A stretch of 37,477 nucleotides of DNA from a virus, in IMG/VR virus record IMGVR_UViG_3300045988_063029, positions 1 through 37,477 of that record. One strand, 5' to 3'. A model generated the notes under the pieces. It searched no databases, was not told the origin of the DNA, and saw only the letters and a list, made by a program, of their open reading frames with translations. The number at the start of each line of letters is the position of its first letter. The first letter of the stretch is position 1. Below, piece after piece: positions 1,500 to 37,348 of the stretch. Made by a program: the position numbers and the translations under genes.

Positions 1500-2216
1500 C
1501 TATTGTTCTAATTGTTTTAATACTTCTGATCTAAATTCTTCTGGGATATTAACGCCATAGGTTATGTCGTTTAATCTATTTACATCCTCGATCGAATTGA
1601 TATAGATTTGCAGCGAATTCAAATATACTCTGTGATACATCACGTGCTTGTCCATTGCTTCTTTCAGTTTCAAGATATCTTCTTTACTAAATATCGTGTC
1701 AACCTCATTGTCTGCATGATATGGCAATAATGTATCGCCAGCATTCGCACGTGCTGCAAGTAAATTTATATATGTCTGATTTTGCTCTGTAAATGAAAAA
1801 TGACCTTTGACTGCGTTTAATTCAAGGTCTAATCCTATTGTTATGATCTGATTGCATTCATTGGTCATTTCTTTTATTTTTCCAGATCTTATAAATTCAA
1901 GATCCTTTGTATTTTCTTTTTTCTTTTCTGTATCATTGGATACTTCCTGCTCCTGGTTAAGTGCCGTGATGATCCCATCATAAATACTCTTGGATGTTAT
2001 TTCTTCCAGAATTACAGTTTCGTAGTCCCCTGCTTCTTTTGGCATATCATCCCAGTCTTTTACGTGGTAGATTCTAATACCATTTCTTTGTATAATTCCT
2101 TGCGGATTATCATCTTTATTACATCTTAAAAACATTTTTGCATTTTGATCATATTTTACATATTGTAATTGTTCATATGCATCAATGATTTTTCCATTTT
2201 TTACTGCCTTATACAT
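1500..2216 (-). CDS. Hypothetical phage protein. The C-terminal half resembles DUF4376-type tail-fibre-associated domains.
   Basis: The 238-aa ORF has a start that overlaps the RT stop by 16 nt (2201-2216), implying co-transcription and coupling. It lies between the tail-fibre/DGR region and the holin. The family call is from memory only. Confidence 0.55.
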   Translation of the reverse strand: MYKAVKNGKIIDAYEQLQYVKYDQNAKMFLRCNKDDNPQGIIQRNGIRIYHVKDWDDMPKEAGDYETVILEEITSKSIYDGIITALNQEQEVSNDTEKKKENTKDLEFIRSGKIKEMTNECNQIITIGLDLELNAVKGHFSFTEQNQTYINLLAARANAGDTLLPYHADNEVDTIFSKEDILKLKEAMDKHVMYHRVYLNSLQIYINSIEDVNRLNDITYGVNIPEEFRSEVLKQLEQ

Positions 2217-3331
2217 AGTCTTTCCTTTCCGAAAAGGTTAGAGTACAATTCTTCCATGTTTTTGATTGTATAATATGCGTTAAAATGTCTTGCGTATGAT
2301 CTCCAACTCTGAAAAGCACTCCACGCATCCTTTTCTGTCATTCTTCCAGCCTCACAGAATTTCTTTAACTTCTTTAGTTTTCTCCTTTCTCTTGTTACAC
2401 TTTTCTTGTAAATTTTCTTTACAATCTTTCCTGATGGTGTCAAGAAGAATCTTCCTTTCAACCATGTAAAACCATGACTAAGTTTTACTATTTGAGTCTT
2501 TTTGTCATTCAGAATAATTCCAAGTTTTTTACATTCCTCTTTTATGACATTCAGGCATTGTTTTAAATATTTTTTATCTGGATGAATCAAATAGCCATCA
2601 TCCATATATCTACCATAATATTTCACTTTTAGTTCTTCTTTAATCAAATGATCCAATTTATTACATGATGCAAGTGCTAGTGTTTGGCTGATCTGTGATC
2701 CAAGTCCAAGCCCTTTGTTTCCTTGAAAGCAATCAATAAAATGATTTATCAAATCAATAGTCCTTTGATCTTTAAATGATTTTTGAACGATTTCTTTAAT
2801 CACATCATGTGATACATTATCAAAAAACTTGCTAAAATCAAATAACAAAATATAGCCATCTGTGCAATATTTTCTATAATGATATTGTAAATGTCTAATC
2901 ATACGATTCATAGCAAAATGATATCCTTTGTTTTTGATTGATGCTCCATTGTCATAGATAAAGCTTCCTTCAATCACTGGTACTAACGCGTGATCGCAAA
3001 GGCACCTTTGAACAATGCGTTCTTCAATCTTCACGCTTTTAATCTTCCGCTTTTTCCCTCTTTCAAATAAATCAAATTCACAGAATCCTTTGCTTCTAAA
3101 TTTTCCATTCATCAATTCTTTTCTCGTTTGATAAACATTTAACGGTGCTTGTACGATGTATTTTTGTGTTGATGCCTTCCATCCAACATTTCTTCTACAT
3201 CGAATATAAGATTTATAAAGATTTTCATAAGAAAAAAGCTCATTAAAAGAAAGAAGCTTTTTCTTTTTCTTAACTTCTCTTCTTTCTTTTCTTCTTTTAT
3301 ATCTTACTTCTTTTCTCTCTTCGCTCGTCAT
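2201..3331 (-). CDS. DGR reverse transcriptase
   Basis: The RT palm motifs are present: FDFSKFFDNVSH, GLGLGSQISQ (the DGR-typical I/LGxxxSQ motif) and YMDD. The RBS AAGAGGT precedes the start. A TR/VR pair and avd lie immediately upstream. Confidence 0.9.
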   Translation of the reverse strand: MTSEERKEVRYKRRKERREVKKKKKLLSFNELFSYENLYKSYIRCRRNVGWKASTQKYIVQAPLNVYQTRKELMNGKFRSKGFCEFDLFERGKKRKIKSVKIEERIVQRCLCDHALVPVIEGSFIYDNGASIKNKGYHFAMNRMIRHLQYHYRKYCTDGYILLFDFSKFFDNVSHDVIKEIVQKSFKDQRTIDLINHFIDCFQGNKGLGLGSQISQTLALASCNKLDHLIKEELKVKYYGRYMDDGYLIHPDKKYLKQCLNVIKEECKKLGIILNDKKTQIVKLSHGFTWLKGRFFLTPSGKIVKKIYKKSVTRERRKLKKLKKFCEAGRMTEKDAWSAFQSWRSYARHFNAYYTIKNMEELYSNLFGKERLCIRQ

Positions 3332-3552
3332 ATTTACCTCTTATTCATTTGTACAGATATAATCCTGATTTTCCGCATATCTGCATAGCGATACTGGGAA
3401 TGAAACGGAAGATTATCAGGCAACTTCCGCCATGCAAGCAGCGTCCTCCCAATCGCATCAAATGTTATATTTACCTTTTTAGGAAGGTCATATTCTCCTT
3501 CTATCTTCTATTCTCACTGCTTTCGCCTTGTGGTTACTTGGTCTGAAAAAAT

Positions 3553-3662
3553 AGAATCCAACGCACACGCCATAGCCGCCGGTAGCATTATTACTATTGA
3601 TATTACCATTGTTATTGACATTGCGAAAAGACACCGCACCGCCTGCATCCGCAGACCTCAGT
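3553..3662 (-). repeat. DGR template repeat (TR), non-coding
   Basis: Positions 3558-3661 align without gaps to 4231-4334 (104 bp). The 6 mismatches are all at plus-strand T, which is coding-strand A, in the TR. The TR reading frame carries 8 AAY codons. The outer boundaries (3553, 3662) are less certain. Confidence 0.92.
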
Positions 3663-3689
3663 GTCACACAGAATATAACCTGTTTTTAA

Positions 3690-4100
3690 TTATTTTAAGA
3701 ATTTTTGAAATCTTTTTCTGTCTTTTGTCATAGCACCTTTAATCAAATTAATCTGAGTTGCTATTAACTCTGACCATTCTTCTAAAACCTTCGTTTCAAA
3801 ATGTATTAATTCATATGCAACCTCAATCTGTGATACTAAATTTTGACATTCCACATATGCTTTTAAGAAAAACTCTCTTCTTATTTGAACTTCTCTTGCA
3901 TTTGTCGGATAAATGCTGTTTGCCTTTTTGGTGTTTGCATATATTTGCGTTGCAGCATCTGCAAGATGTTGTCCCAAATAAAATGTATACCTTTTAGGAA
4001 TTGTATTTACACAACGCCTAATTGTATATATTTCAAGCTTTCTTGCGTTATTTAAAAACTCCATTTCTGAAAGTCCTCTTTGGCTTTTGATCACGCTCAT
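3690..4100 (-). CDS. avd: Accessory variability determinant (Avd-like four-helix-bundle protein)
   Basis: This small helical basic protein lies between VR and TR, the canonical avd position. The IPKRY segment resembles the Avd IPRKH region. GGAGG lies 8 nt upstream of the ATG at 4100. The ORF track start at 4115 has no RBS. Confidence 0.75.
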   Translation of the reverse strand: MSVIKSQRGLSEMEFLNNARKLEIYTIRRCVNTIPKRYTFYLGQHLADAATQIYANTKKANSIYPTNAREVQIRREFFLKAYVECQNLVSQIEVAYELIHFETKVLEEWSELIATQINLIKGAMTKDRKRFQKFLK

Positions 4101-4186
4101 TACTTCATCCTCCATGTGTCAGTATATCATATTTTTGTTTTTGAATCGACCGCCTTACGGCGGTTGATATATTGACTGCTTTTTTT

Positions 4187-4208
4187 CTGCCGGGACATAG
4201 CCCGGCAG
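4187..4208 (-). other. GC-rich hairpin/cruciform just downstream of VR (candidate DGR target-recognition element)
   Basis: CTGCCGGG-ACATAG-CCCGGCAG forms an 8-bp GC-rich stem that ends 10 nt (4208) from the target-gene stop codon (4218-4220). On the transcribed strand it is followed by A residues, not U, so it is not an intrinsic terminator. Confidence 0.6.
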
Positions 4209-4217
4209 ATAATCTGA

Positions 4218-7200
4218 TTAAACCGAGAAGCCAACGCACACGCCATAGCCGCCGGTAGCATTAGTACTATAGATACTACCATAGTTATTGACACCGCGAA
4301 AAGACACCGCACCGCCTGCATCCGCAGACCTCAGCCAATAATCCCATACTGATCCTGTACCGTTATAGATGCACTTTTTCCTCGAATTGTTGTCAGTGTA
4401 GCATGAGAACGTCACTTCTTCTGCTTCTGTTGAAACTTCGTTTTTATAAGGAACTGCCGTTAGCTCAGCTCCCACTTCACAAATTGACGGAATTCTCAAG
4501 TGATCCTGTGATGTTGTTATCGTCGTTGATTGGTTTCCGGCACTTGCCAGCGTATCCGACAACGCGATAAAGTTTCTCCATTGCGGTGGCAGCATAGGAT
4601 ATAATGTTTTATTCATCCATTCTCTTAGCGCGCTCTTATCCCATCCTCCTTTATTCGTTGCGGTCTTATTCATTTGTTGTCTGATTCCGAGCACACCAAT
4701 CATGTAGAAATCACCATTCGTCATTCCTGTTCCCGATGACAATGCGTAATGTCCTTTGGAATGATATCTAAATACAATACTTTCGTCCGGAATAATCTCG
4801 TTCTCTTTTGCTTTCTGCGGTACCATTTTGATTAATGCCGCCGGGGTGAATCCGTATTCTACAGCTTTGCCCATTTTAAAAATTGAGTAAAACTCTCCGA
4901 ACGTGTATGCAGATTTATCTTTTGGATCATCGCTGTAAGCATAGTCATACTGTGTTAAATCCTTGATCTGTCCTGGTAGCTGTGGGTAGATGTACGTTGC
5001 GTTAATGTCCATGTCTTGCGTAACGTCGTCCGCTGTCTTGTCCCATCCAATCCATACATATCCGGATTTTTCAAGGTCTTTTCCTTCGTAGATACAAGAT
5101 CCATGAGCTTTTACATTATGGATCTCGATTACTTCTCCTTCGTTCAGGTATCTTACAACGTATGCCCTTGTCTGTGATGTAAACAATGCTGTTACCGTTG
5201 TATCTTGTGTGATATTTTCAATCGGCACGTCCCATTTGAAGAAAGTATACACATTATCCTGGTCCGGCTCTTTGATCGGTGTCCCAATATATCCTACCTG
5301 GATCGGATCTTGTGCAGCTCCTCCATGCTCAACCTTTTGTGTATTCAGTGTTGTTCCATCCCAGTTCTTAAATGTTACTGTATGCTCTTCCAATAGCTGA
5401 CCGTATGTAAATGTTACTGTTCTGATCGCATCTGACAATTCTTTGTACTTTGTCGGCGAAATTCCGTCAAAATAAACAGATCCTGTCAATACTCCGTTTT
5501 CTGTGTTATGGCCATCGTCGTCAATACCATTCGCTTCATGTAATCTCATTAATGTCCTGTAGGCTTTGACCGTTGTCCTCCAATCAATGTCAATCAATCT
5601 TACTCTTGTCAGGTTTTCCGCGTTCATGGCAATTGTTAAAGTGTCAAGTGCTGGGCTTCCTGAAACATTCAATGTTGTTAAAAGATTGTACGCTTGTAAT
5701 GTAAATTCTTTTACATACATCAGGTTTTTTGCAAAAATTGATGTAACTGCATTCAGTTTTGCTTTTTGCAATCGCTGGTATGGTGCAAATGTGACGCCTG
5801 TGATTCCGCTTCCTCTTGTATAGCACTCTTTTACGTTAATGTTATTGCTAAGATCTAGCTCCTGCGCCAGTGCTGGGCAGTTTTCAACATTGATGTACTC
5901 CAAGGATGTCGCGTTTTTTACAGTTACTTCTTTCATATTTGTATTAACGTACCCATCTGTACTTGAGCCGATCTGTGCTCGTTTTAGTTTTTTACAACTT
6001 GCAATGTCTGTGTATCCAGGATATAAGCATGACAGGTCTCCAAGATCCTGAATAAATGCAGCGTTTCTAATATAGATTTCTGTGTCATTCATCTGCGGTA
6101 CGCCCAACTGTAATTCAACTGCTTTTCCCGCCGTTGTTCGTTTCTGCGTCGTTCCGGACCCAGCTTTTACAGTTATCCATAAGTCACTGTAAGGTGTGAT
6201 CGTCATCTTGCTTTCTGGTGTGATCACAAGATTCCCACTTGTTGGTGTGTACCCTCGAATCGTTGCGCTTTCTGCCGTTGCGTAGGGACTTATAAAGTAA
6301 GAGCTCATAAATGCTCTTTGGTAGTGTAAAAACTGTCGCCTTTGCAGTCTCTTCTGCCCATTCAGCATCGGAATGTATGCAGACGTTCCAAGGACTGTGT
6401 ATGTTTTAATGTCTTTCCGCCACACATCTTCAATCCATAGTGATTCTGCTGCAAGCGACTGTATTTCTTCGCAGTGATCTGCAAACGCATCAAGATCCCA
6501 TGCTCCAGCATTTTCACGATTGATGTACATGTTTGCCAATTCCTGTGGAAACGCTTTCCACATCATCTGAAAGACGGTTGCATCTGCTGCGTTAAATACG
6601 TCTCTGGTTCCAATCTTATCGTAATCCATGTACCCATACTTAAGTGTTAAGCCACCCTCGTTGTCGTTCCCCATTGCTGTATCATTATCATACGCAAAAC
6701 ATAGATTCCATTTTCCAGATAATTTACTGTATCCCCAGAAAGTGTTCTTCGCTCTGTTGTCGACCTGGCTAAATACCAGAGTGATCAGTACGTGCCACAT
6801 TACGGAATCTACAATCATGTGATCTGCTGCTTCTTTCCTGAATTTTGCAATCCTATACTCCTTTGAATCCACTGAAAAAGCCTGGCCGTCAATTGTCACT
6901 ACACTTGGCAGTGTTTTGTTTGTTGCTGCGTCTGCATTGCAAGATACTACCCATGTCAAAAAGTCTTTCCACAATTGCTTTGCTTCTTCTTCATTTTGTG
7001 ACTCCGCAAGGTGTCTAAATTCAAAGTTTGTATCTCCGTCCCATGTCTCTGTCGAAAGATCAGCAGACTTCATTCGGCACTGATTGGATGTATTGTTTGC
7101 TACCTCAATAACGATCACATCGTCTGTTTCATTTTGTGCAAATACATCCAGATTCTTTTTCGAATTGTTGATATTCCCCAACGAATAGAAAACTGTTTCA

Positions 7201-10200
7201 TCTGGTGCTACTGTCATAGGTCCAACCTGTACCGCTTCATTTCCAGTGTTGTGAAAAAATAAAGCTGCCATGTGTCCCTCGACTGTATCTCTTACCTTTT
7301 TATTTATTTGCTTTGCTGGTCGTGTATATGGCTGATATGTATTGTACCAGTCAGATACCAGAATGTTATTAATATGCTCCTGTGATGCAACATTAGTTTT
7401 AAAATTCAGGTAATTAACCCCGATAGAATTATCTGTCATGGCATATGTGTCAACGTGGCTTCCATCTTCAAGATCAAATCCATTTTTAAAATTAAAGTCT
7501 TCATTGCATCCGGCCTGTACATATCCAAGGGATGATGTACCCTGTGCCTTCTGTTCTACGTTTGTTGCTGTCCATGAATGTGCTGCGCCACCTTTTACAT
7601 ATTTATGCGTAACGCTTCCTGTGATCTTCTGGCTTTTTGCCGTTGATACATTCGGAGCATGCCACGTGAAAACGTGCAGACCTGGATTGAGCGTTGCAAC
7701 TTTATCAGGATCCAAGTTTCCAGAGGAATCATAAAGCTGATTCCTGTCATGTCTTGCCATGATCTCAGCCCCATCTTTCCCATCTGCGCAGAAGTTTGCC
7801 TTGATCTCGTCTGTTGTAAGATCTCGACTGTATACTCTAATCATGTAGATAACCACATCACAATCATCAGACCCGATTGTGATTCCTACAGGTGTTGTCT
7901 GTTTCAAGTTGTCATTGCTTGCATAGATTGCTGCTTTTGCTGGTGTTCCTCTTTCCCACAGCATCACCAGGCGATTTTCTGAATCCGGTTCAATGTTCAC
8001 TTCTGCTTCTGTCTTGTACCCCTCACATAATGGATATTCAAGCGTTGTCTGCTCGGTTTTCACTGTCATCGAATTGGCTTTCATACTTAATCCAATGTTG
8101 TTATTCATGCATGTAATTGCCTGCGCATCAAACAATGAGCTGTTTTCAACCTTGTAAATAAATTTAAAGTTTCGCCCATCTTTTCTTGCATCCGTTCCAA
8201 ACAATTTATAATCCAGTGTAATCCTGTCACCTTTTACTACCTTGATACATCGGATTCCTTCTGGATCCGTCTGTAATCCACCGTTATGCGTATCAAAATT
8301 TTCGGAAAGTGTCAGACCACTGACTATTTTTAGATCTGTGATCTTGTTCGGATCAATCTTTAATACAAGACTGTCTGTGATCTCACTGATATCAGATGAT
8401 AGTGCAGAGACTTCAATCGTCTTTTCCCACCTCTTTCCATCACATTCAATTGCAAGTTTTAGCGTTCCTGCATCCGTTGTTCTATAACTCCAGATGTGTT
8501 CCGATTGATCTACGCTTTCGGTTGACTGTAGAGTGTCATTAATGTAAAAATTTACTGTTGTCGGATTGGCAGAGCTTAATACTCTGTATGGGATTGCCAG
8601 TGTCGCGTACTGGTCGACCTTTTTCTCTGTCAGTTTGGCTGCAACGACTGTCCCACCACCATCTTGTGCAACCGCACACGTGAGTGTGTCAGATGTTAAC
8701 GTCACGCCGTTCAGTGACATTGTCCCGTACACGCTTACCTCATGTGCTCCAGCTGTAAGTGTTGTGCTAAACACAATCCTTCGCCCTGTCGTTGTTACCT
8801 CCTGCATGCTTTGTTGGATGCCGTCTACCGTCAAATAAATTCTTTTTACTCCTGATCCTGTTGGCGTTACGTAAATTGTCAACACTCCACTGTTCTTCTC
8901 GGTGTTTCCAAGATTCCAGTCTAACGTAAATGATTCCATTGTGATCGTTAACGTTCTTGTCGCTGTTGCTCCATATGTATCGGTCATTGTAAGCTTGACC
9001 GTATTGGCGCCGCTTGAAAGATGCTCAAAAATGTCCAATGTGATATTGTCGCCCTGTTCAATTGTTTTGTTCTCTTTCAGGATTCCTCCGACATAGATTG
9101 ATAAGTTTCCAGCCCCTGTTGGTGTCTGTGTCGTTGCGTCCAATGATGAGAATTTAAACTTGATTGGTGCTGTTCCATTTGTCTGTAAAACTGAAAATGC
9201 CGCCGGCGAGTACATTGCAAATACGAGTTTGGATCCGGAACTAGATCCCCCACCTGTCCCTATAAAGATTGGATCAAATCCTTCAATGTCTGTCCCGTCC
9301 TGTGTCAGGTGTAGATATCCATCTTCGCTCATATACCCAGAATTAAAAGCAAGCCCACCACTTCCTGATCCAGTTCCTACTGTGATACCGTCGCTTATGA
9401 TCTCGCCATTGTTTGTAAGGTATAACTTCCCATCTTCCATCCGGAAACCATTCGCATAATTGTTCGAGCTTTTTGTCAGTAGCTCTATGTTGTTCGTAAG
9501 TAGCCGAATTGCATCTTGTAAAGCATCTGTATCTTTTTCATTATCGATAATTCTTGACCTGAATTCTTCATTGAGCTTATCAAATGATACTGCCCCGTCT
9601 GCGATTTTTTTCGTTTTAATAGCTCCGTCTGCGATTTTTTCTGTTGTCACACTCTCGTTTGCCATCTTCTCGGATGTGATCGATCCGTCTTTAATTTTTC
9701 TTTCTGTTACAGAATTATCACTGATCTTATCTTCTGTTACTGCCTGATTTCCAATTTTTTCAGATGTCACAGATGAGTCTTGCAGCTTTTTTGACGATAC
9801 TGAGCTATCTTTTAATTCATCCGTAGAAACTGATTGATACTGAAGTTTCTTCCCTGTTACTGTTCTGTCACTGATCTTATCTTCTGTTATTGCTCCATCT
9901 GCAATTTTTTCACCTGAAATGCTTCCATCTGCAATCTGTGCAGCCTGGAACTCTCCCTGTGCTTTCCATGCTCCATTCGTATAAACGTACCAGTTTCCGT
10001 AGACGTAACCTGCTTCTGATCCGTAATAGACGTAGATCTTTGATGTGTCTGTCATTTCCGCTGCTGTTTTTGCAGATAGTGGTGCTCCATACTGGTTTTT
10101 GTCTGCTTTAGTCTGCTTTAGGTTTTCAATGTCCTTCTGTATATCATCCAGTACGCCCAGTTCGTTTTCACTGACTGTCGCAGATTTTAATAAAGATTTT

Positions 10201-10520
10201 TTTACATCTAAATTAAATACAAAGCTTTGCACGATCTCTTCATCTTTCGATAATTCAATCTGGCATTCTGTGATTCCTGTTTCTGCAAGTGCCTGTTCTG
10301 TCAGCTTTATGATTACTGCATTTTCCGAAATTTCGCAATTATTGTAAATTATTTTTTTCGATTGTTTTACTGCGATAAATCTCGCTGTTACCCCTGTAAG
10401 GTTTAGTCCTATAATGTTACATTTTAAAACGCGGCCGGTATCTCCTTGTGTAACCTCTGCTGTTTGTCTGATGCCCTCGCTTGTTAAATCAAGTGTTATT
10501 GTTTTATCTACCATTGCCAT
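4218..10520 (-). CDS. Giant tail fibre / receptor-binding protein, the DGR target (BppU-like N-terminus, fibre repeats, Ig-like and LRR-like regions, C-type-lectin-fold VR domain)
   Basis: The 2100-aa ORF follows Tal. Its N-terminal ~110 aa resemble the baseplate upper protein N domain. Residues 196-315 form 12 decapeptide repeats. The C-terminus YWLRSADAGG...GVCVGFSV is typical of DGR CLec-fold targets. An ATG at 10514 is better spaced from AGGAG than the ATG at 10520. Confidence 0.85.
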   Translation of the reverse strand: MAMVDKTITLDLTSEGIRQTAEVTQGDTGRVLKCNIIGLNLTGVTARFIAVKQSKKIIYNNCEISENAVIIKLTEQALAETGITECQIELSKDEEIVQSFVFNLDVKKSLLKSATVSENELGVLDDIQKDIENLKQTKADKNQYGAPLSAKTAAEMTDTSKIYVYYGSEAGYVYGNWYVYTNGAWKAQGEFQAAQIADGSISGEKIADGAITEDKISDRTVTGKKLQYQSVSTDELKDSSVSSKKLQDSSVTSEKIGNQAVTEDKISDNSVTERKIKDGSITSEKMANESVTTEKIADGAIKTKKIADGAVSFDKLNEEFRSRIIDNEKDTDALQDAIRLLTNNIELLTKSSNNYANGFRMEDGKLYLTNNGEIISDGITVGTGSGSGGLAFNSGYMSEDGYLHLTQDGTDIEGFDPIFIGTGGGSSSGSKLVFAMYSPAAFSVLQTNGTAPIKFKFSSLDATTQTPTGAGNLSIYVGGILKENKTIEQGDNITLDIFEHLSSGANTVKLTMTDTYGATATRTLTITMESFTLDWNLGNTEKNSGVLTIYVTPTGSGVKRIYLTVDGIQQSMQEVTTTGRRIVFSTTLTAGAHEVSVYGTMSLNGVTLTSDTLTCAVAQDGGGTVVAAKLTEKKVDQYATLAIPYRVLSSANPTTVNFYINDTLQSTESVDQSEHIWSYRTTDAGTLKLAIECDGKRWEKTIEVSALSSDISEITDSLVLKIDPNKITDLKIVSGLTLSENFDTHNGGLQTDPEGIRCIKVVKGDRITLDYKLFGTDARKDGRNFKFIYKVENSSLFDAQAITCMNNNIGLSMKANSMTVKTEQTTLEYPLCEGYKTEAEVNIEPDSENRLVMLWERGTPAKAAIYASNDNLKQTTPVGITIGSDDCDVVIYMIRVYSRDLTTDEIKANFCADGKDGAEIMARHDRNQLYDSSGNLDPDKVATLNPGLHVFTWHAPNVSTAKSQKITGSVTHKYVKGGAAHSWTATNVEQKAQGTSSLGYVQAGCNEDFNFKNGFDLEDGSHVDTYAMTDNSIGVNYLNFKTNVASQEHINNILVSDWYNTYQPYTRPAKQINKKVRDTVEGHMAALFFHNTGNEAVQVGPMTVAPDETVFYSLGNINNSKKNLDVFAQNETDDVIVIEVANNTSNQCRMKSADLSTETWDGDTNFEFRHLAESQNEEEAKQLWKDFLTWVVSCNADAATNKTLPSVVTIDGQAFSVDSKEYRIAKFRKEAADHMIVDSVMWHVLITLVFSQVDNRAKNTFWGYSKLSGKWNLCFAYDNDTAMGNDNEGGLTLKYGYMDYDKIGTRDVFNAADATVFQMMWKAFPQELANMYINRENAGAWDLDAFADHCEEIQSLAAESLWIEDVWRKDIKTYTVLGTSAYIPMLNGQKRLQRRQFLHYQRAFMSSYFISPYATAESATIRGYTPTSGNLVITPESKMTITPYSDLWITVKAGSGTTQKRTTAGKAVELQLGVPQMNDTEIYIRNAAFIQDLGDLSCLYPGYTDIASCKKLKRAQIGSSTDGYVNTNMKEVTVKNATSLEYINVENCPALAQELDLSNNINVKECYTRGSGITGVTFAPYQRLQKAKLNAVTSIFAKNLMYVKEFTLQAYNLLTTLNVSGSPALDTLTIAMNAENLTRVRLIDIDWRTTVKAYRTLMRLHEANGIDDDGHNTENGVLTGSVYFDGISPTKYKELSDAIRTVTFTYGQLLEEHTVTFKNWDGTTLNTQKVEHGGAAQDPIQVGYIGTPIKEPDQDNVYTFFKWDVPIENITQDTTVTALFTSQTRAYVVRYLNEGEVIEIHNVKAHGSCIYEGKDLEKSGYVWIGWDKTADDVTQDMDINATYIYPQLPGQIKDLTQYDYAYSDDPKDKSAYTFGEFYSIFKMGKAVEYGFTPAALIKMVPQKAKENEIIPDESIVFRYHSKGHYALSSGTGMTNGDFYMIGVLGIRQQMNKTATNKGGWDKSALREWMNKTLYPMLPPQWRNFIALSDTLASAGNQSTTITTSQDHLRIPSICEVGAELTAVPYKNEVSTEAEEVTFSCYTDNNSRKKCIYNGTGSVWDYWLRSADAGGAVSFRGVNNYGSIYSTNATGGYGVCVGFSV
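4226..4335 (-). repeat. DGR variable repeat (VR), encoding the last ~38 codons of the 2100-aa tail protein
   Basis: The VR aligns to the TR as described in the TR entry. VR encodes LRSADAGGAVSFRGVNNYGSIYSTNATGGYGVCVG. The TR frame encodes LRSADAGGAVSFRNVNNNGNINSNNATGGYGVCVG. Confidence 0.92.
9576..9935 (-). repeat. 12 tandem 30-nt (decapeptide) coding repeats in the tail fibre gene
   Basis: The repeats read IADGSISGEK / IADGAITEDK / ISDRTVTGKK / LQYQSVSTDE / LKDSSVSSKK / LQDSSVTSEK / IGNQAVTEDK / ISDNSVTERK / IKDGSITSEK / MANESVTTEK / IADGAIKTKK / IADGAVSFDK. Confidence 0.85.
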
Positions 10521-36157: not shown

Positions 36158-37348
36158 ATGTCTGTAATTACTAAAACTTATACAAGTAAAAAAACAGGAA
36201 AAATCAAAAAAAGTTATTGTGCTGTCCAATGGCACCCACTTTTGAAACGTAAGGTATCTGGTCCTCGCAGATCGAACAAAAAGGAAGCTAAGCAGGACGA
36301 TGCTAAACTTACCCTTCAAATAAAAAAAGAAGTTAAAGAAGAAAATGTGAAAAAGCAATCAGAGGAATATTTCGGTAAAGTTGCTGATTTGTGGTTAGAG
36401 GCGAATAAAAAAACTTACGCAGATGAAACTTATCGAACTTATCGCGGATATTTAGACAGATATATCTTTCCTGTCTTCGAAGATGTTCCGATTTCTGGAA
36501 TCGAATCAAGGCATATTTTAAATTTTAAGAAAAGTTTAGAAAATGGAAATAATCCAAGAAAACATAAATACGGAGCTGAAACTGTAAACAAAAACATTAA
36601 TATCCTCTGTGATGTGTTCAATTTCGCCGTATCTCCATTAAAATTGATTGATGGTAAAGATAATCCAATGATTGGAATAAAGCGAAATAAAGTGGCATAC
36701 ATGGTCAAACGAACATGGTCTGACGAACAGATCTCTATCTTTTTAAGTTCTATGGAAGCAAAAGCATCGCATTATTATGCCATGTTCTGCTGTCAGATTC
36801 TTCTCGGTCCTCGTCCGAGCGAGACATGTGGTCTTGCAGAAAGCGATTATGATCCTGATCGTCAATGCTTTTATATGCATCGAACTTTAAACAAATACGG
36901 AGTTCTTGAAGACAATATGAAGAGTTCTAATTCTTTCAGAGCTGTTTACATTCCTGATACTCTAAATAAGGCTGTCAAGAAAAATCTACTCTGGAAGAAA
37001 GAAATGAGGTTAAAATATCCTGATCGGTTTGATAATGATTTTCTTTTTAACACTGAAATTGGCACTCCTGTCCGTCCTGATCACTTGTATCGAATGTTTA
37101 CCAGAACTGAAAAACGTTATAATGCAAATCATAATGAAACCTTGCCTGTGATTACTCTGTACGATTGCAGACACACATTCGCAACGACTAATTACGAGCG
37201 TGGAGAATCTGATAAGGTTCTATCTGAGATTATGGGAAATACTCCTTCTACTTTTTTGCAGAAATATGCACACATTCATGGCGATCGAAAGCAGCAATCC
37301 TTGGAAGCTTTTGAGGATATTATTTTTAAGTCAGGCAACAAAAAATAA
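36158..37348 (+). CDS. int: Tyrosine integrase (full length, with N-terminal arm/core-binding regions)
   Basis: The 396-aa protein has LGPRPSE (Arg), DCRHTFATT (His-x-x-Arg) and QKYAHI (Tyr). It lies adjacent to attR. Confidence 0.9.
   Translation: MSVITKTYTSKKTGKIKKSYCAVQWHPLLKRKVSGPRRSNKKEAKQDDAKLTLQIKKEVKEENVKKQSEEYFGKVADLWLEANKKTYADETYRTYRGYLDRYIFPVFEDVPISGIESRHILNFKKSLENGNNPRKHKYGAETVNKNINILCDVFNFAVSPLKLIDGKDNPMIGIKRNKVAYMVKRTWSDEQISIFLSSMEAKASHYYAMFCCQILLGPRPSETCGLAESDYDPDRQCFYMHRTLNKYGVLEDNMKSSNSFRAVYIPDTLNKAVKKNLLWKKEMRLKYPDRFDNDFLFNTEIGTPVRPDHLYRMFTRTEKRYNANHNETLPVITLYDCRHTFATTNYERGESDKVLSEIMGNTPSTFLQKYAHIHGDRKQQSLEAFEDIIFKSGNKK

Follow-up and report, generated by a model that had tools for sequence, protein, structure and literature searches.

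The window, which is the whole 37,477-nt stretch of DNA that was analysed, almost certainly carries a complete diversity-generating retroelement (DGR) of the BPP-1 type, located in a ~37-kb prophage of siphovirus type whose host belongs to the Anaerostipes hadrus group. The DGR appears to be active and to rewrite the tip of a giant tail protein in this human-gut prophage. It is a clean example of a familiar class of very high abundance, but an ordinary one that brings nothing of a new kind to this class. A survey cited in bioRxiv 10.1101/2023.10.23.563531 has catalogued about 31,000 DGRs, which are enriched in the human gut, and DGR targets of the DUF6273 type have been described in gut Firmicutes prophages (PMC10743442, PMC11792537).

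Organization of the DGR

On the minus strand, the target gene with VR at its 3′ end is followed by a GC-rich hairpin, avd, the non-coding TR, a spacer and the RT gene (Table 1). The preliminary description had proposed the order target-avd-TR-RT as in BPP-1, and every component was verified. The target ORF (4218-10520) has the 2100 codons ascribed to it, and VR stops 5 nt short of its stop codon. The ATG at 4100, which yields the 136-aa Avd-like protein, is supported by homologues and by an upstream GGAGGA. The intergenic position of TR was confirmed, in line with its being non-coding, and the spacer, given before as ~220 nt, measures 221 nt between TR and the RT gene. The GLGLGSQISQ and YMDD motifs attributed to the RT were both found. 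Prophage genes were identified as the context of the DGR, and the host was placed in the Anaerostipes hadrus group.

Table 1. Positions of the DGR components and of the predicted RNA and DNA elements in the window.
Feature	Position	Strand	Description
DGR RT gene	2201..3331	-	376 aa; RVT_1 6e-19; PHROG 1423 2e-87
Spacer RNA, TR to RT	3324..3551	-	Rfam RF03077 'RT-2 RNA'; 228 nt
Spacer strand of the upstream:Sp duplex	3486..3496	-	AGAAUAUGACC; followed by stem-loop 3474-3483 and A-rich UAAAUAU 3467-3473
Spacer primer strand	3499..3505	-	GAUAGAA; A3499 is the predicted priming adenosine
TR 3′ end and adjoining bases	3550..3556	-	UUCUAUU; predicted template strand; pairs with spacer
TR	3553..3661	-	Non-coding; 24 adenines; 8 AAY codons in the VR frame
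Upstream duplex strand	3670..3680	-	GGUUAUAUUCU; ends 8 nt before TR; pairs with spacer
avd	3690..4100	-	136 aa; four-helix bundle; within ORF 3690-4115
GC-rich hairpin or cruciform	4186..4209	-	TCTGCCGGG-CTATGT-CCCGGCAGA; 9-bp stem
Target gene	4218..10520	-	2100 aa; tail or baseplate-attached; BppU_N N-terminal, DUF6273 (putative C-lectin-like variable domain) C-terminal
VR	4226..4334	-	Last part of target gene; codons 2062-2097 of the 2100-codon ORF
Invariant GC-rich VR 3′ part, IMH-like	4226..4255	-	CCGGCGGCTATGGCGTGTGCGTTGG-C-TTCT; unvarying in 16 loci
VR mutable core	4256-4295	-	Codons 2076-2089

The TR/VR pair and the target site

TR and VR form a direct repeat of 109 nt (3553-3661 and 4226-4334, offset 673) with 7 mismatches, every one of which falls on a TR adenine; with 24 adenines in 109 nt, the chance of 7 out of 7 is 1.2e-5. 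Within the 104-nt span delimited earlier (3558-3661 and 4231-4334), exactly 6 mismatches were counted, all at TR adenines of the minus strand as had been reported, and an independent alignment of TR and VR of the window gave no non-adenine mismatch. The repeat runs 5 nt beyond that span, which adds the seventh mismatch (A3557 in TR, C4230 in VR). This one is a fixed TR/VR difference, C being present at 4230 in every VR of 16 related loci. The six core mismatches are at codon position 1 or 2 of AAT codons, and the TR adenines are distributed over codon positions 1, 2 and 3 as 12, 10 and 2. No further repeat copy or second VR was found in the window; a TR pattern made degenerate by writing N for each A matched TR and VR only, with 0 sites expected.

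TR and VR diverge beyond TTCT. DGR target sites typically have an invariant GC-rich IMH at the VR 3′ end, different from the IMH* of TR, and a GC-rich hairpin 4-34 bp downstream. The VR has both an invariant GC-rich 3′ end that differs from the TR copy and a GC-rich hairpin downstream, and by analogy with BPP-1 the segment 4226..4255 probably acts as the IMH. The hairpin begins 16 nt past the end of the TR/VR homology and has no T-run after it. It was present in 22 of 25 related cassettes checked, as a covarying GC stem of 7-14 bp placed 20-37 nt after the homology end, and its loop is conserved in these relatives (5-6 nt, CTTTGT). Hairpins downstream of VR are required in BPP-1, where a 4-nt GRNA loop is needed (PMC3240598). 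The loop here is 6 nt (CTATGT) and not a GRNA tetraloop, which counts against full BPP-1 likeness; the hairpin may have a role in retrohoming.

The target is a tail protein with a DUF6273 tip

The target protein matched BppU_N (1e-9) and DUF6273 (1.2e-12) in Pfam as well as PHROG tail-fibre families, and its gene comes directly after Dit and a Tal-like Prophage_tail gene. An AF2 model of the last 220 aa (pLDDT 88.4) matched phage DUF6273 proteins in BFVD with E-values down to 5e-12. The variable residues in the model lie on two strands (E193-197 and E203-207) and the intervening loop. DUF6273 of gut phage DGR targets has been described as C-type-lectin-like with a hypermutated β-hairpin (PMC11792537, PMC10743442). 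Position and homology suggest that the tip of the target is receptor-binding. The DGR could instead serve something other than phage host-range switching: the DUF6273 tip might, for example, attach to mucus, to immune factors or to further ligands that do not belong to the host, or it might work for the lysogen and not for the virion. Non-host ligands have been raised as a possibility for DGR-diversified gut phage proteins (PMC10743442), and among solved structures the closest neighbour of the DUF6273 model is 9qa6, part of a gut-bacterial IgA peptidase. We consider this reading unlikely for a protein that bears the baseplate-attachment domain BppU_N and is encoded between the gene for the Tal-like protein and those for lysis, the usual place of siphovirus receptor-binding proteins.

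Avd and the RT

Avd matched PHROG 3206 'Avd protein of DGR' at 7.8e-11, and its match to Pfam 23S_rRNA_IVP (PF05635) was below threshold at 1.2e-3. Foldseek searches with the AF2 model (pLDDT 88.7) gave the PF05635-family structures 2gsc and 2rld as best PDB folds, with TM scores (normalised to the target) of 0.86-0.90 and rmsd of 1.4-1.9 Å; bAvd was absent from the top 50 matches. Avd has more than 500 homologues, and the exact protein occurs on roughly 180-200 public contigs. It provides the element with one of the accessory proteins (Avd or HRDC) of DGRs.

The assignment of the RT to the DGR kind, rather than to retrons or group II introns, was borne out by its closest solved relative and by its signature motif. 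The best PDB sequence match was BPP-1 bRT (8ub7, E 3e-20), with group II RTs at 5e-10. R95 of the RT aligns with R74 of bRT, and LGSQISQ (210-216) aligns with bRT I181-Q187. LGSQISQ fits the DGR RT signature [I/V/L]GxxxSQ, found in place of QGxxxSP (PMC7826257), and YMDD fits YxDD. NCBIfam scores were far under the cut-offs for group II (92.6 bits, cut-off 300), retron (47.8, cut-off 235) and Drt3a (57.5, cut-off 200) RTs, and PADLOC reported generic RT similarity only. An Rfam scan of the window detected RT-2 alone; neither an intron RNA of group II nor a retron ncRNA was among its matches.

VR and TR variation among natural loci

VR diversity was analysed in 16 near-identical loci from human-gut metagenomes, which are 96.9-99.3% identical. 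They carry 15 different VRs, and each of the 17 VR columns that vary falls on a TR adenine (P ~1e-14), as anticipated from the window alone. Within the AAY codons, the changes affect only the first and second positions. Columns of the mutable core vary ~40 times more often than flanking columns, 15 of 1417 of which vary. Adenine-only VR diversity against ~1% flanking variation indicates that the element has been active in nature; because this diversity is between assemblies of different samples, it speaks for past rather than current activity. The finding of 15 VRs in 16 loci that differ by 1-3% elsewhere also means that VR turnover is faster than strain divergence.

TR is identical in 13 of the 16 loci. 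In three loci TR itself was altered, at adenines only, with 4-7 adenines lost in each. In L011 and L013, TR has C at 3583 and 3597 and VR has the matching C at 4256 and 4270, position 4256 being A in all the other loci. The matching C at 4256 shows TR-to-VR transfer of a non-adenine change. L011 and L013 also show two TR/VR mismatches at TR cytosines, which would call for a conversion tract that was incomplete or for a change in TR at a later time. Judged from these sequences, the diversity of VRs in nature, together with the C transferred to 4256, argues strongly for mutagenic retrohoming from TR to VR.

A different explanation would be that the DGR is decayed or now inactive, with intact parts, no retrohoming in this lysogen and VR differences among strains that are old. 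The window, L001 and L002 are separate assemblies with one identical VR, and the disappearance of 4-7 TR adenines in three loci would be a first step of erosion. Such inactivity is nonetheless quite improbable: RT, Avd and TR are all intact, the RT keeps YMDD, R95 and LGSQISQ, and both the number of VRs and the excess variability of the core point the other way. Almost no weight can be given to the idea that VR variation reflects ordinary point mutation in a receptor-binding loop under diversifying selection, or strain recombination, next to an unrelated RT (retron, group II intron or defence). Diversifying selection on receptor-binding tips is common, and the RT is generically similar to many RT classes. 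However, every variable column matches an adenine of a non-coding repeat 673 nt away, the changes keep to two positions of AAY codons, and the VRs of L011 and L013 mirror a TR change that is not at an adenine-type difference. The RT has bRT as its closest solved relative and scores far below the NCBIfam cut-offs of the other classes, and RT-2 is the only Rfam hit in the window. The idea is effectively refuted.

The spacer RNA and its long-range duplexes

The spacer matched RT-2 over its full length in cmscan (149 bits with a gathering score of 40, E 2e-35). RT-2 is found directly after TR in 36 of the 38 loci encoding an Avd of the same family, and most of these related cassettes also have A-only TR/VR mismatches. 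Two strands of the spacer, parted by GG 3497-3498 (2 nt), form duplexes with sequences outside it. Pairing between the TR 3′ end and the spacer was assessed in 37 related cassettes, 32 of which are distinct. The paired fractions were 1.0, 0.41, 0.97, 1.0, 1.0, 0.97, 0.97 and 0.78, and none of 2000 partner permutations reached the observed pairing. The duplex of the spacer with the strand upstream of TR has 11 of 11 pairs in the window and a mean of 10.64 of 11 in 25 cassettes, with compensatory changes, versus 8.80 ± 0.17 when Sp strands were swapped between loci. The RNA displays the BPP-1-type arrangement of two covarying duplexes 2 nt apart (25-37 cassettes), followed by a stem-loop and adenosines. 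The priming adenosine of BPP-1 is Sp A56 (bioRxiv 10.1101/2023.10.23.563531), and by analogy we predict cis-priming at A3499. The strand at 3670..3680 corresponds to that of the avd:Sp 'cPRT Stop' duplex in BPP-1 and may have the same stop function.

We give an even chance to a broader proposal, in which a large lineage of Clostridia-phage DGRs uses RT-2 as its scaffold RNA for cis-priming, the RNA rebuilding the two-duplex architecture of the BPP-1 cryo-EM structure via partners outside the Rfam model, and in which the directionality of retrohoming leaks in the wild, so that TR is rewritten at adenines only in 3 of 16 elements, progressively removing mutable sites, and then propagates faithfully into VR. 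If the RT-2 part is true, A3499 offers a specific priming site that could be tested in a gut phage of a Gram-positive host. The element would give the orphan Rfam RNA RT-2 a defined role. It would also carry the cis-priming architecture of BPP-1 over to phages of Bacillota, backed by covariation and with one particular nucleotide predicted to prime.

A model for VR diversification

In the mechanism that we propose, a transcript comprising the RT-2 spacer, TR and the avd 3′ end would take up its fold around the complex of RT and Avd. The spacer would pair with the TR 3′ end (3499-3505 with 3550-3556) and, 2 nt on, with the sequence just upstream of TR (3486-3496 with 3670-3680). Spacer A3499 would then cis-prime cDNA synthesis, and TR would be copied with random misincorporation opposite adenines until copying halts at the upstream duplex. 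The cDNA would replace VR at the 3′ end of the tail gene, guided by the invariant GC-rich VR 3′ end and the hairpin at 4186-4209. Randomisation of the eight AAY codons could by itself generate 15^8, or ~2.6e9, protein variants. The randomised codons sit on the β-hairpin of the C-terminal DUF6273 in the model, and the presumed receptor-binding surface would thereby be varied.

Discussion

The value of this element is that of a clean natural example. The Anaerostipes hadrus group has cultured species, so the lysogen could be sought among isolates, and the exact Avd on ~180-200 public contigs means that VR turnover can be followed across people. The adenine-only polymorphism of TR offers a route to studying how DGRs lose or retune mutational capacity.

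The closest characterised system is the DGR of Bordetella phage BPP-1 (mtd-avd-TR-brt). Both elements have the order target-avd-TR-spacer-RT, VR at the very 3′ end of the gene for a (here presumed) receptor-binding tail protein, adenine-only TR/VR differences and a GC-rich hairpin downstream of VR (PMC3240598). They also share a four-helix-bundle Avd, an RT with [I/V/L]GxxxSQ, YMDD and the R74 equivalent, and a spacer that pairs with the TR 3′ end and with sequence upstream of TR, 2 nt apart, ahead of a stem-loop and adenosines (10.1101/2023.10.23.563531). The two RTs are, however, distant in sequence (E 3e-20), and the spacer of BPP-1 is RT-10 (PMC5737381), whereas the one described here is RT-2. 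In BPP-1 the upstream strand of the duplex is part of avd, whereas here it falls in the gap between avd and TR, and the hairpin loop has 6 nt (CTATGT, family consensus CTTTGT) instead of the GRNA tetraloop. In place of the 381-aa Mtd, the target is a BppU_N...DUF6273 protein of 2100 aa, and the host is a Gram-positive gut anaerobe.

The element also resembles the DGRs with DUF6273 targets in Faecalibacterium phages Lelie, Roos and Pioen, in nd4- and nd12-like phages and in the tentaclin study, in which VR lies at the DUF6273 C-terminus. These too belong to temperate phages of gut Clostridia, with TR adenines that differ between related genomes (PMC11792537, PMC10743442). It differs from them in host genus, which is Anaerostipes, in the absence of a second VR within the window, and in having one 2100-aa BppU_N-anchored target as opposed to DUF6273 proteins of ~170-380 aa or tentaclins with an N-terminal VR.

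The spacer agrees with Rfam RF03077 RT-2 RNA (Weinberg et al., 2017) in its full-length match and its place immediately upstream of the RT gene. In its description, RT-2 was an orphan motif from the vicinity of RT genes. Of the RT motifs, RT-10 alone had been connected with a DGR, and for the rest such a role was speculative (PMC5737381). Our analysis goes beyond that description in that, in 36/38 cassettes, RT-2 begins at the boundary of a TR whose TR/VR pair is A-mutagenised. It also goes beyond the RT-2 model, in that two stretches unpaired in the Rfam consensus form covarying duplexes with partners outside it.

Organization of the cassette and the TR/VR pair

The target, avd, TR, spacer and RT were all found within 2201-10520 on the minus strand, in the order given by the preliminary description. 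MAFFT and a repeat finder agreed on a single direct repeat of 109 nt (3553-3661 and 4226-4334, offset 673). The 104-nt span originally described contains exactly six mismatches, every one at an adenine of the intergenic copy (minus strand); the 5-nt extension adds a seventh, A3557 versus C4230, also at a TR adenine. With 24 adenines in 109 nt, the probability of seven out of seven mismatches falling on A by chance is 1.2e-5. The six core mismatches occupy position 1 or 2 of AAT codons and convert N to G, Y, S, Y and T. Read in the VR frame, the TR has eight AAY codons, and its adenines are distributed as 12, 10 and 2 over codon positions 1, 2 and 3. A TR pattern with N at every adenine matched the window only at the TR and the VR, indicating a single DGR target here. 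As far as sequence can tell, the element has all the defining features of a DGR, which supports the interpretation first proposed for it.

Features of the DGR cassette and the prophage
Feature	Position	Strand	Remarks
Target ORF	4218-10520	minus	2100 aa; first in transcription order
DUF6273 domain of target	4221-4880	minus	
VR-proximal hairpin	4209-4186		TCTGCCGGG-CTATGT-CCCGGCAGA; GC-rich, 9-bp stem; 16 nt past TR/VR homology end
avd ORF	3690-4115	minus	short, helical; likely start ATG 4100 (136 aa)
TR	3553-3661	minus	non-coding repeat copy, after avd
Gap between TR and RT ORF		minus	221 nt
Duplex 1	3556-3550 + 3505-3499		UUCUAUU + GAUAGAA
Duplex 2	3680-3670 + 3496-3486		GGUUAUAUUCU + AGAAUAUGACC; 11/11 pairs
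Spacer stem-loop	3474-3483		short, after duplex 2; followed by UAAAUAU
RT ORF	2201-3331	minus	376 aa; last in transcription order
Integrase	36158-37348		

The last gene of the cassette encodes a reverse transcriptase (Pfam RVT_1, 6e-19; PHROG 1423, 2e-87). Of the solved structures, the BPP-1 DGR RT 8ub7 matches it best (E 3e-20), with group II RTs coming next at 5e-10 and weaker. The protein scored far under the NCBIfam cut-offs for group II, retron and Drt RTs, and its similarity to defence RTs is generic only. Residues L210-G-S-Q-I-S-Q216 aligned to I181-Q187 of bRT, the BPP-1 enzyme, and constitute the DGR signature [I/V/L]GxxxSQ; R95 aligned to bRT R74, and YMDD to the catalytic YMDD of bRT. 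Both R74 and I181 of bRT have been shown to promote adenine mutagenesis (PMC7826257).

The small protein was matched to PHROG 3206 ('Avd protein of DGR') at 7.8e-11 and to Pfam PF05635 below threshold. PDB sequence searches with Avd, its profile, the target C-terminus and the profile of the latter returned nothing meaningful, and structure prediction was therefore needed. The AF2 model of Avd is a four-helix bundle (pLDDT 88.7) that can be superposed on 2gsc and 2rld, pentamers of the PF05635 family, with a TM score (normalised to target) of 0.86-0.90 and an rmsd of 1.4-1.9 Å; the BPP-1 protein bAvd was absent from the best 50 structure matches of the model.

Adenine-restricted variation in natural VRs and TRs

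Near-identical loci were gathered from human-gut metagenomes and IMG/VR by exact RT, exact Avd and TR pattern; about 180-200 contigs carried the exact Avd. Sixteen loci, aligned over 1634 columns at 96.9-99.3% identity, contained 15 distinct VRs versus only three TRs. All of the 17 variable VR columns (4256-4295) were at TR adenines (P 1e-14), and 15 of 1417 flanking columns were variable. The adenine restriction is not a search artefact, because loci were recruited via the TR, Avd or RT and never via the VR. Across the 16 loci, the VR always has C at position 4230 where the TR has A; this is thus a fixed boundary difference of the kind of IMH and IMH*, the 3' end elements of VR and TR in BPP-1, rather than a product of mutagenesis. 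The VR of one locus (L007) carries an in-frame 3-nt deletion (window-equivalent 4276-4278), and the lysine/glutamate-rich N-terminus of the RT in another (L013) lacks 27 nt in frame (window-equivalent 3273-3299).

The TR differs from the common TR in three of the 16 loci (L011, L012 and L013), within 3583-3621. There are seven changes in L012 and four that are common to L011 and L013, and the changed columns are adenines in nine out of nine cases (P 3e-7). All seven changed TR bases of L012 equal the bases of its own VR, and the leftover TR/VR mismatches are at leftover adenines. In L011 and L013, the new C of the TR is mirrored in the VR at two 3'-proximal sites, 4270 and 4256, the latter being A in every other locus; at two 5' sites of TR change the VR retains A or G. 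Assembly chimerism was rejected as the source of the TR variants: matching and non-matching TR/VR sites are interleaved at spacings far under any assembler k-mer, and the same variant TR occurs in L011 and L013, which are independent assemblies. The L011/L013 pattern suggests TR-to-VR transfer with a variable 5' boundary, leaving partial conversion tracts. The TR polymorphism suggests that the TR itself is occasionally rewritten, either by mis-homing (self-homing) of mutagenised cDNA or by VR-to-TR conversion.

The target protein and its hairpin

BppU_N is the N-terminal and DUF6273 the C-terminal domain of the target, which also matches tail-fibre PHROGs; its gene lies after Dit and a Tal-like Prophage_tail gene and before the holin and endolysin. 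The variable residues (2076, 2078-2080, 2082, 2084, 2086 and 2087) map in the predicted model to two adjacent strands and the intervening loop, a placement consistent with the published 'hypermutated beta-hairpin' of DUF6273 (PMC11792537, PMC10743442). A Foldseek search of the PDB with the DUF6273 model gave no significant C-type-lectin or Mtd match, and we therefore do not claim a C-lectin fold from the present data; the nearest neighbour of the model among solved structures is 9qa6, an IgA peptidase from Thomasclavelia ramosa (E 1e-3; TM 0.60, normalised to query). DUF6273 belongs to a large family, with 1854 cluster representatives at E <= 1e-3. The domain occurs as a stand-alone protein of 168 aa, at the C-terminal end of proteins of ~2000 aa, and repeated within one protein, the maximum being the 11 copies of the 3973-aa P0128; Mtd_N (PF18454) is present in some members. 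Near the N-terminus of the target, residues ~195-315 (~9575-9935, minus strand) form ~10-residue tandem repeats with the rough consensus S-[VI]-T-x-E-K-I-x-D-x, which correspond to repeats D2 and D4 of the repeat finder and are matched by tail-fibre PHROGs 892 and 28766. Visual inspection of mid-target suggested a CotH-like motif as well as leucine-rich and Listeria-Bacteroides repeats. These were dropped; Pfam gave no CotH there and only sub-threshold LRR_EndoS (0.029) and Flg_new (4e-4).

Downstream of the VR is a hairpin with no T-run after it on the coding strand. An equivalent hairpin was present in 22 of the 25 relatives checked, 20-37 nt past the homology end, with stem sequences that vary yet stay complementary and a conserved loop of 5-6 nt, CTTTGT. 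BPP-1 requires a hairpin 4-34 bp from the VR, in which the structure and not the sequence of the stem matters and the loop is a sequence-specific GRNA tetraloop (PMC3240598); the 6-nt loop of the window is a lineage variant. The stretch from the stop codon to the hairpin contains conserved TAATC motifs (window 4186-4220 and equivalent regions in the Clostridia loci L018-L052). A second small hairpin, ACCGCC-GTAA-GGCGGT (4149-4164, minus strand), lies between the VR hairpin and avd, and in some distant relatives, such as L038, the sole hairpin after the VR has a GTAA loop.

Long-range pairing in the spacer RNA

The TR-RT spacer (3324-3551) matched Rfam RT-2 (RF03077) at full length, with 149 bits. 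RT-1 to RT-19 were reported by Weinberg et al. as motifs found close to RT genes, of which only RT-10, the BPP-1 spacer, was tied to a DGR, a similar role for the others being speculation (PMC5737381). RT-2 was present in 36 of 38 GTDB-genome loci encoding an Avd of this family (Clostridia MAGs, L018-L055), usually starting ~4 nt past a TR whose mismatches to the VR fall exclusively or almost exclusively on A. An entire DGR lineage thus has RT-2 as its spacer RNA. One locus (L046) has two RT-2 copies, and two identical cassettes (L052 and L053) are separated by 37 kb on a single contig.

No useful information came from MFE folding of the avd-TR-spacer RNA (z-score -0.84). Two long-range pairings, both unpaired in the Rfam consensus, were spotted by eye across relatives and then tested by anchored, permutation-controlled counts. 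Duplex 1 joins the bases after a conserved GGN at the TR 3' end to the spacer bases that adjoin a conserved GGAG on its 5' side. The paired fractions at its eight positions in the anchored registers were 1.0, 0.41, 0.97, 1.0, 1.0, 0.97, 0.97 and 0.78, and positions 5-7 each showed several pair types. The observed value was not equalled in any of 2000 partner permutations, and every shifted register was worse. Duplex 2 joins a segment 3-31 nt upstream of the TR to the spacer beginning two nucleotides after duplex 1; across 25 cassettes it averaged 10.64 of 11 pairs, with many compensatory changes, versus 8.80 +/- 0.17 when spacer strands were exchanged between loci.

The spacer duplexes, stem-loop and A-rich stretch of the window have the layout of the BPP-1 RNP, where the template-primer duplex between TR and Sp ends at the priming spacer (Sp) nucleotide A56 and is followed by two unpaired nucleotides, the avd:Sp 'cPRT Stop' duplex, a stem-loop and adenosines making A-minor contacts (10.1101/2023.10.23.563531). 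Compensatory mutations failed to rescue the stop duplex in BPP-1. By analogy with BPP-1, cDNA would be primed from spacer A3499, and its synthesis is predicted to terminate just before 3670-3680.

Prophage context and host

The window represents a prophage of siphovirus type, with endolysin, holin, Dit, tape measure, major tail, capsid, portal, large terminase and replication genes. An exact-pattern scan of GTDB representative genomes did not find this TR; flanking genes were used for the host assignment. A metagenome contig with 100% identity to the window over 13.3 kb runs on into host thiS/G/H and pyr genes, and the flanking ThiH is 99% identical to that of Anaerostipes hadrus and A. amylophilus; judged by these genes, the prophage belongs to the A. 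hadrus/A. amylophilus group. Megablast of window 1-25000 against INPHARED GenBank phages (August 2025) gave zero matches, and thus no named phage relative is available. Near-identical contigs occur in IMG/VR and many human-gut metagenomes, Hadza samples included. A scan for consensus promoters and terminators around the cassette gave nothing above shuffled expectation. A 238-aa ORF (1500-2216, minus strand) overlaps the RT stop by 16 nt and has weak tail-fibre similarity (phrog_1348, 4.6e-5; DUF4376 sub-threshold), so that the avd-TR-RT module is inserted between two tail-fibre-type genes.

Comparison with known systems

In a prophage of the human gut, a well-formed DGR is to be expected and comes as no surprise; the modest additions for DGR specialists are the covariation-backed BPP-1 RNA architecture on RT-2 and the adenine-only TR polymorphism. 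In mechanism and gene order the element comes closest to BPP-1, and in target type to the DGRs of gut Firmicutes prophages that target DUF6273 (PMC11792537, PMC10743442). The window element differs from these in its host genus and in its very large BppU_N-anchored target. Unlike BPP-1, it has a spacer of the RT-2 class, an intergenic upstream duplex strand, and a 6-nt hairpin loop in place of the tetraloop. These differences are variations within a known kind.
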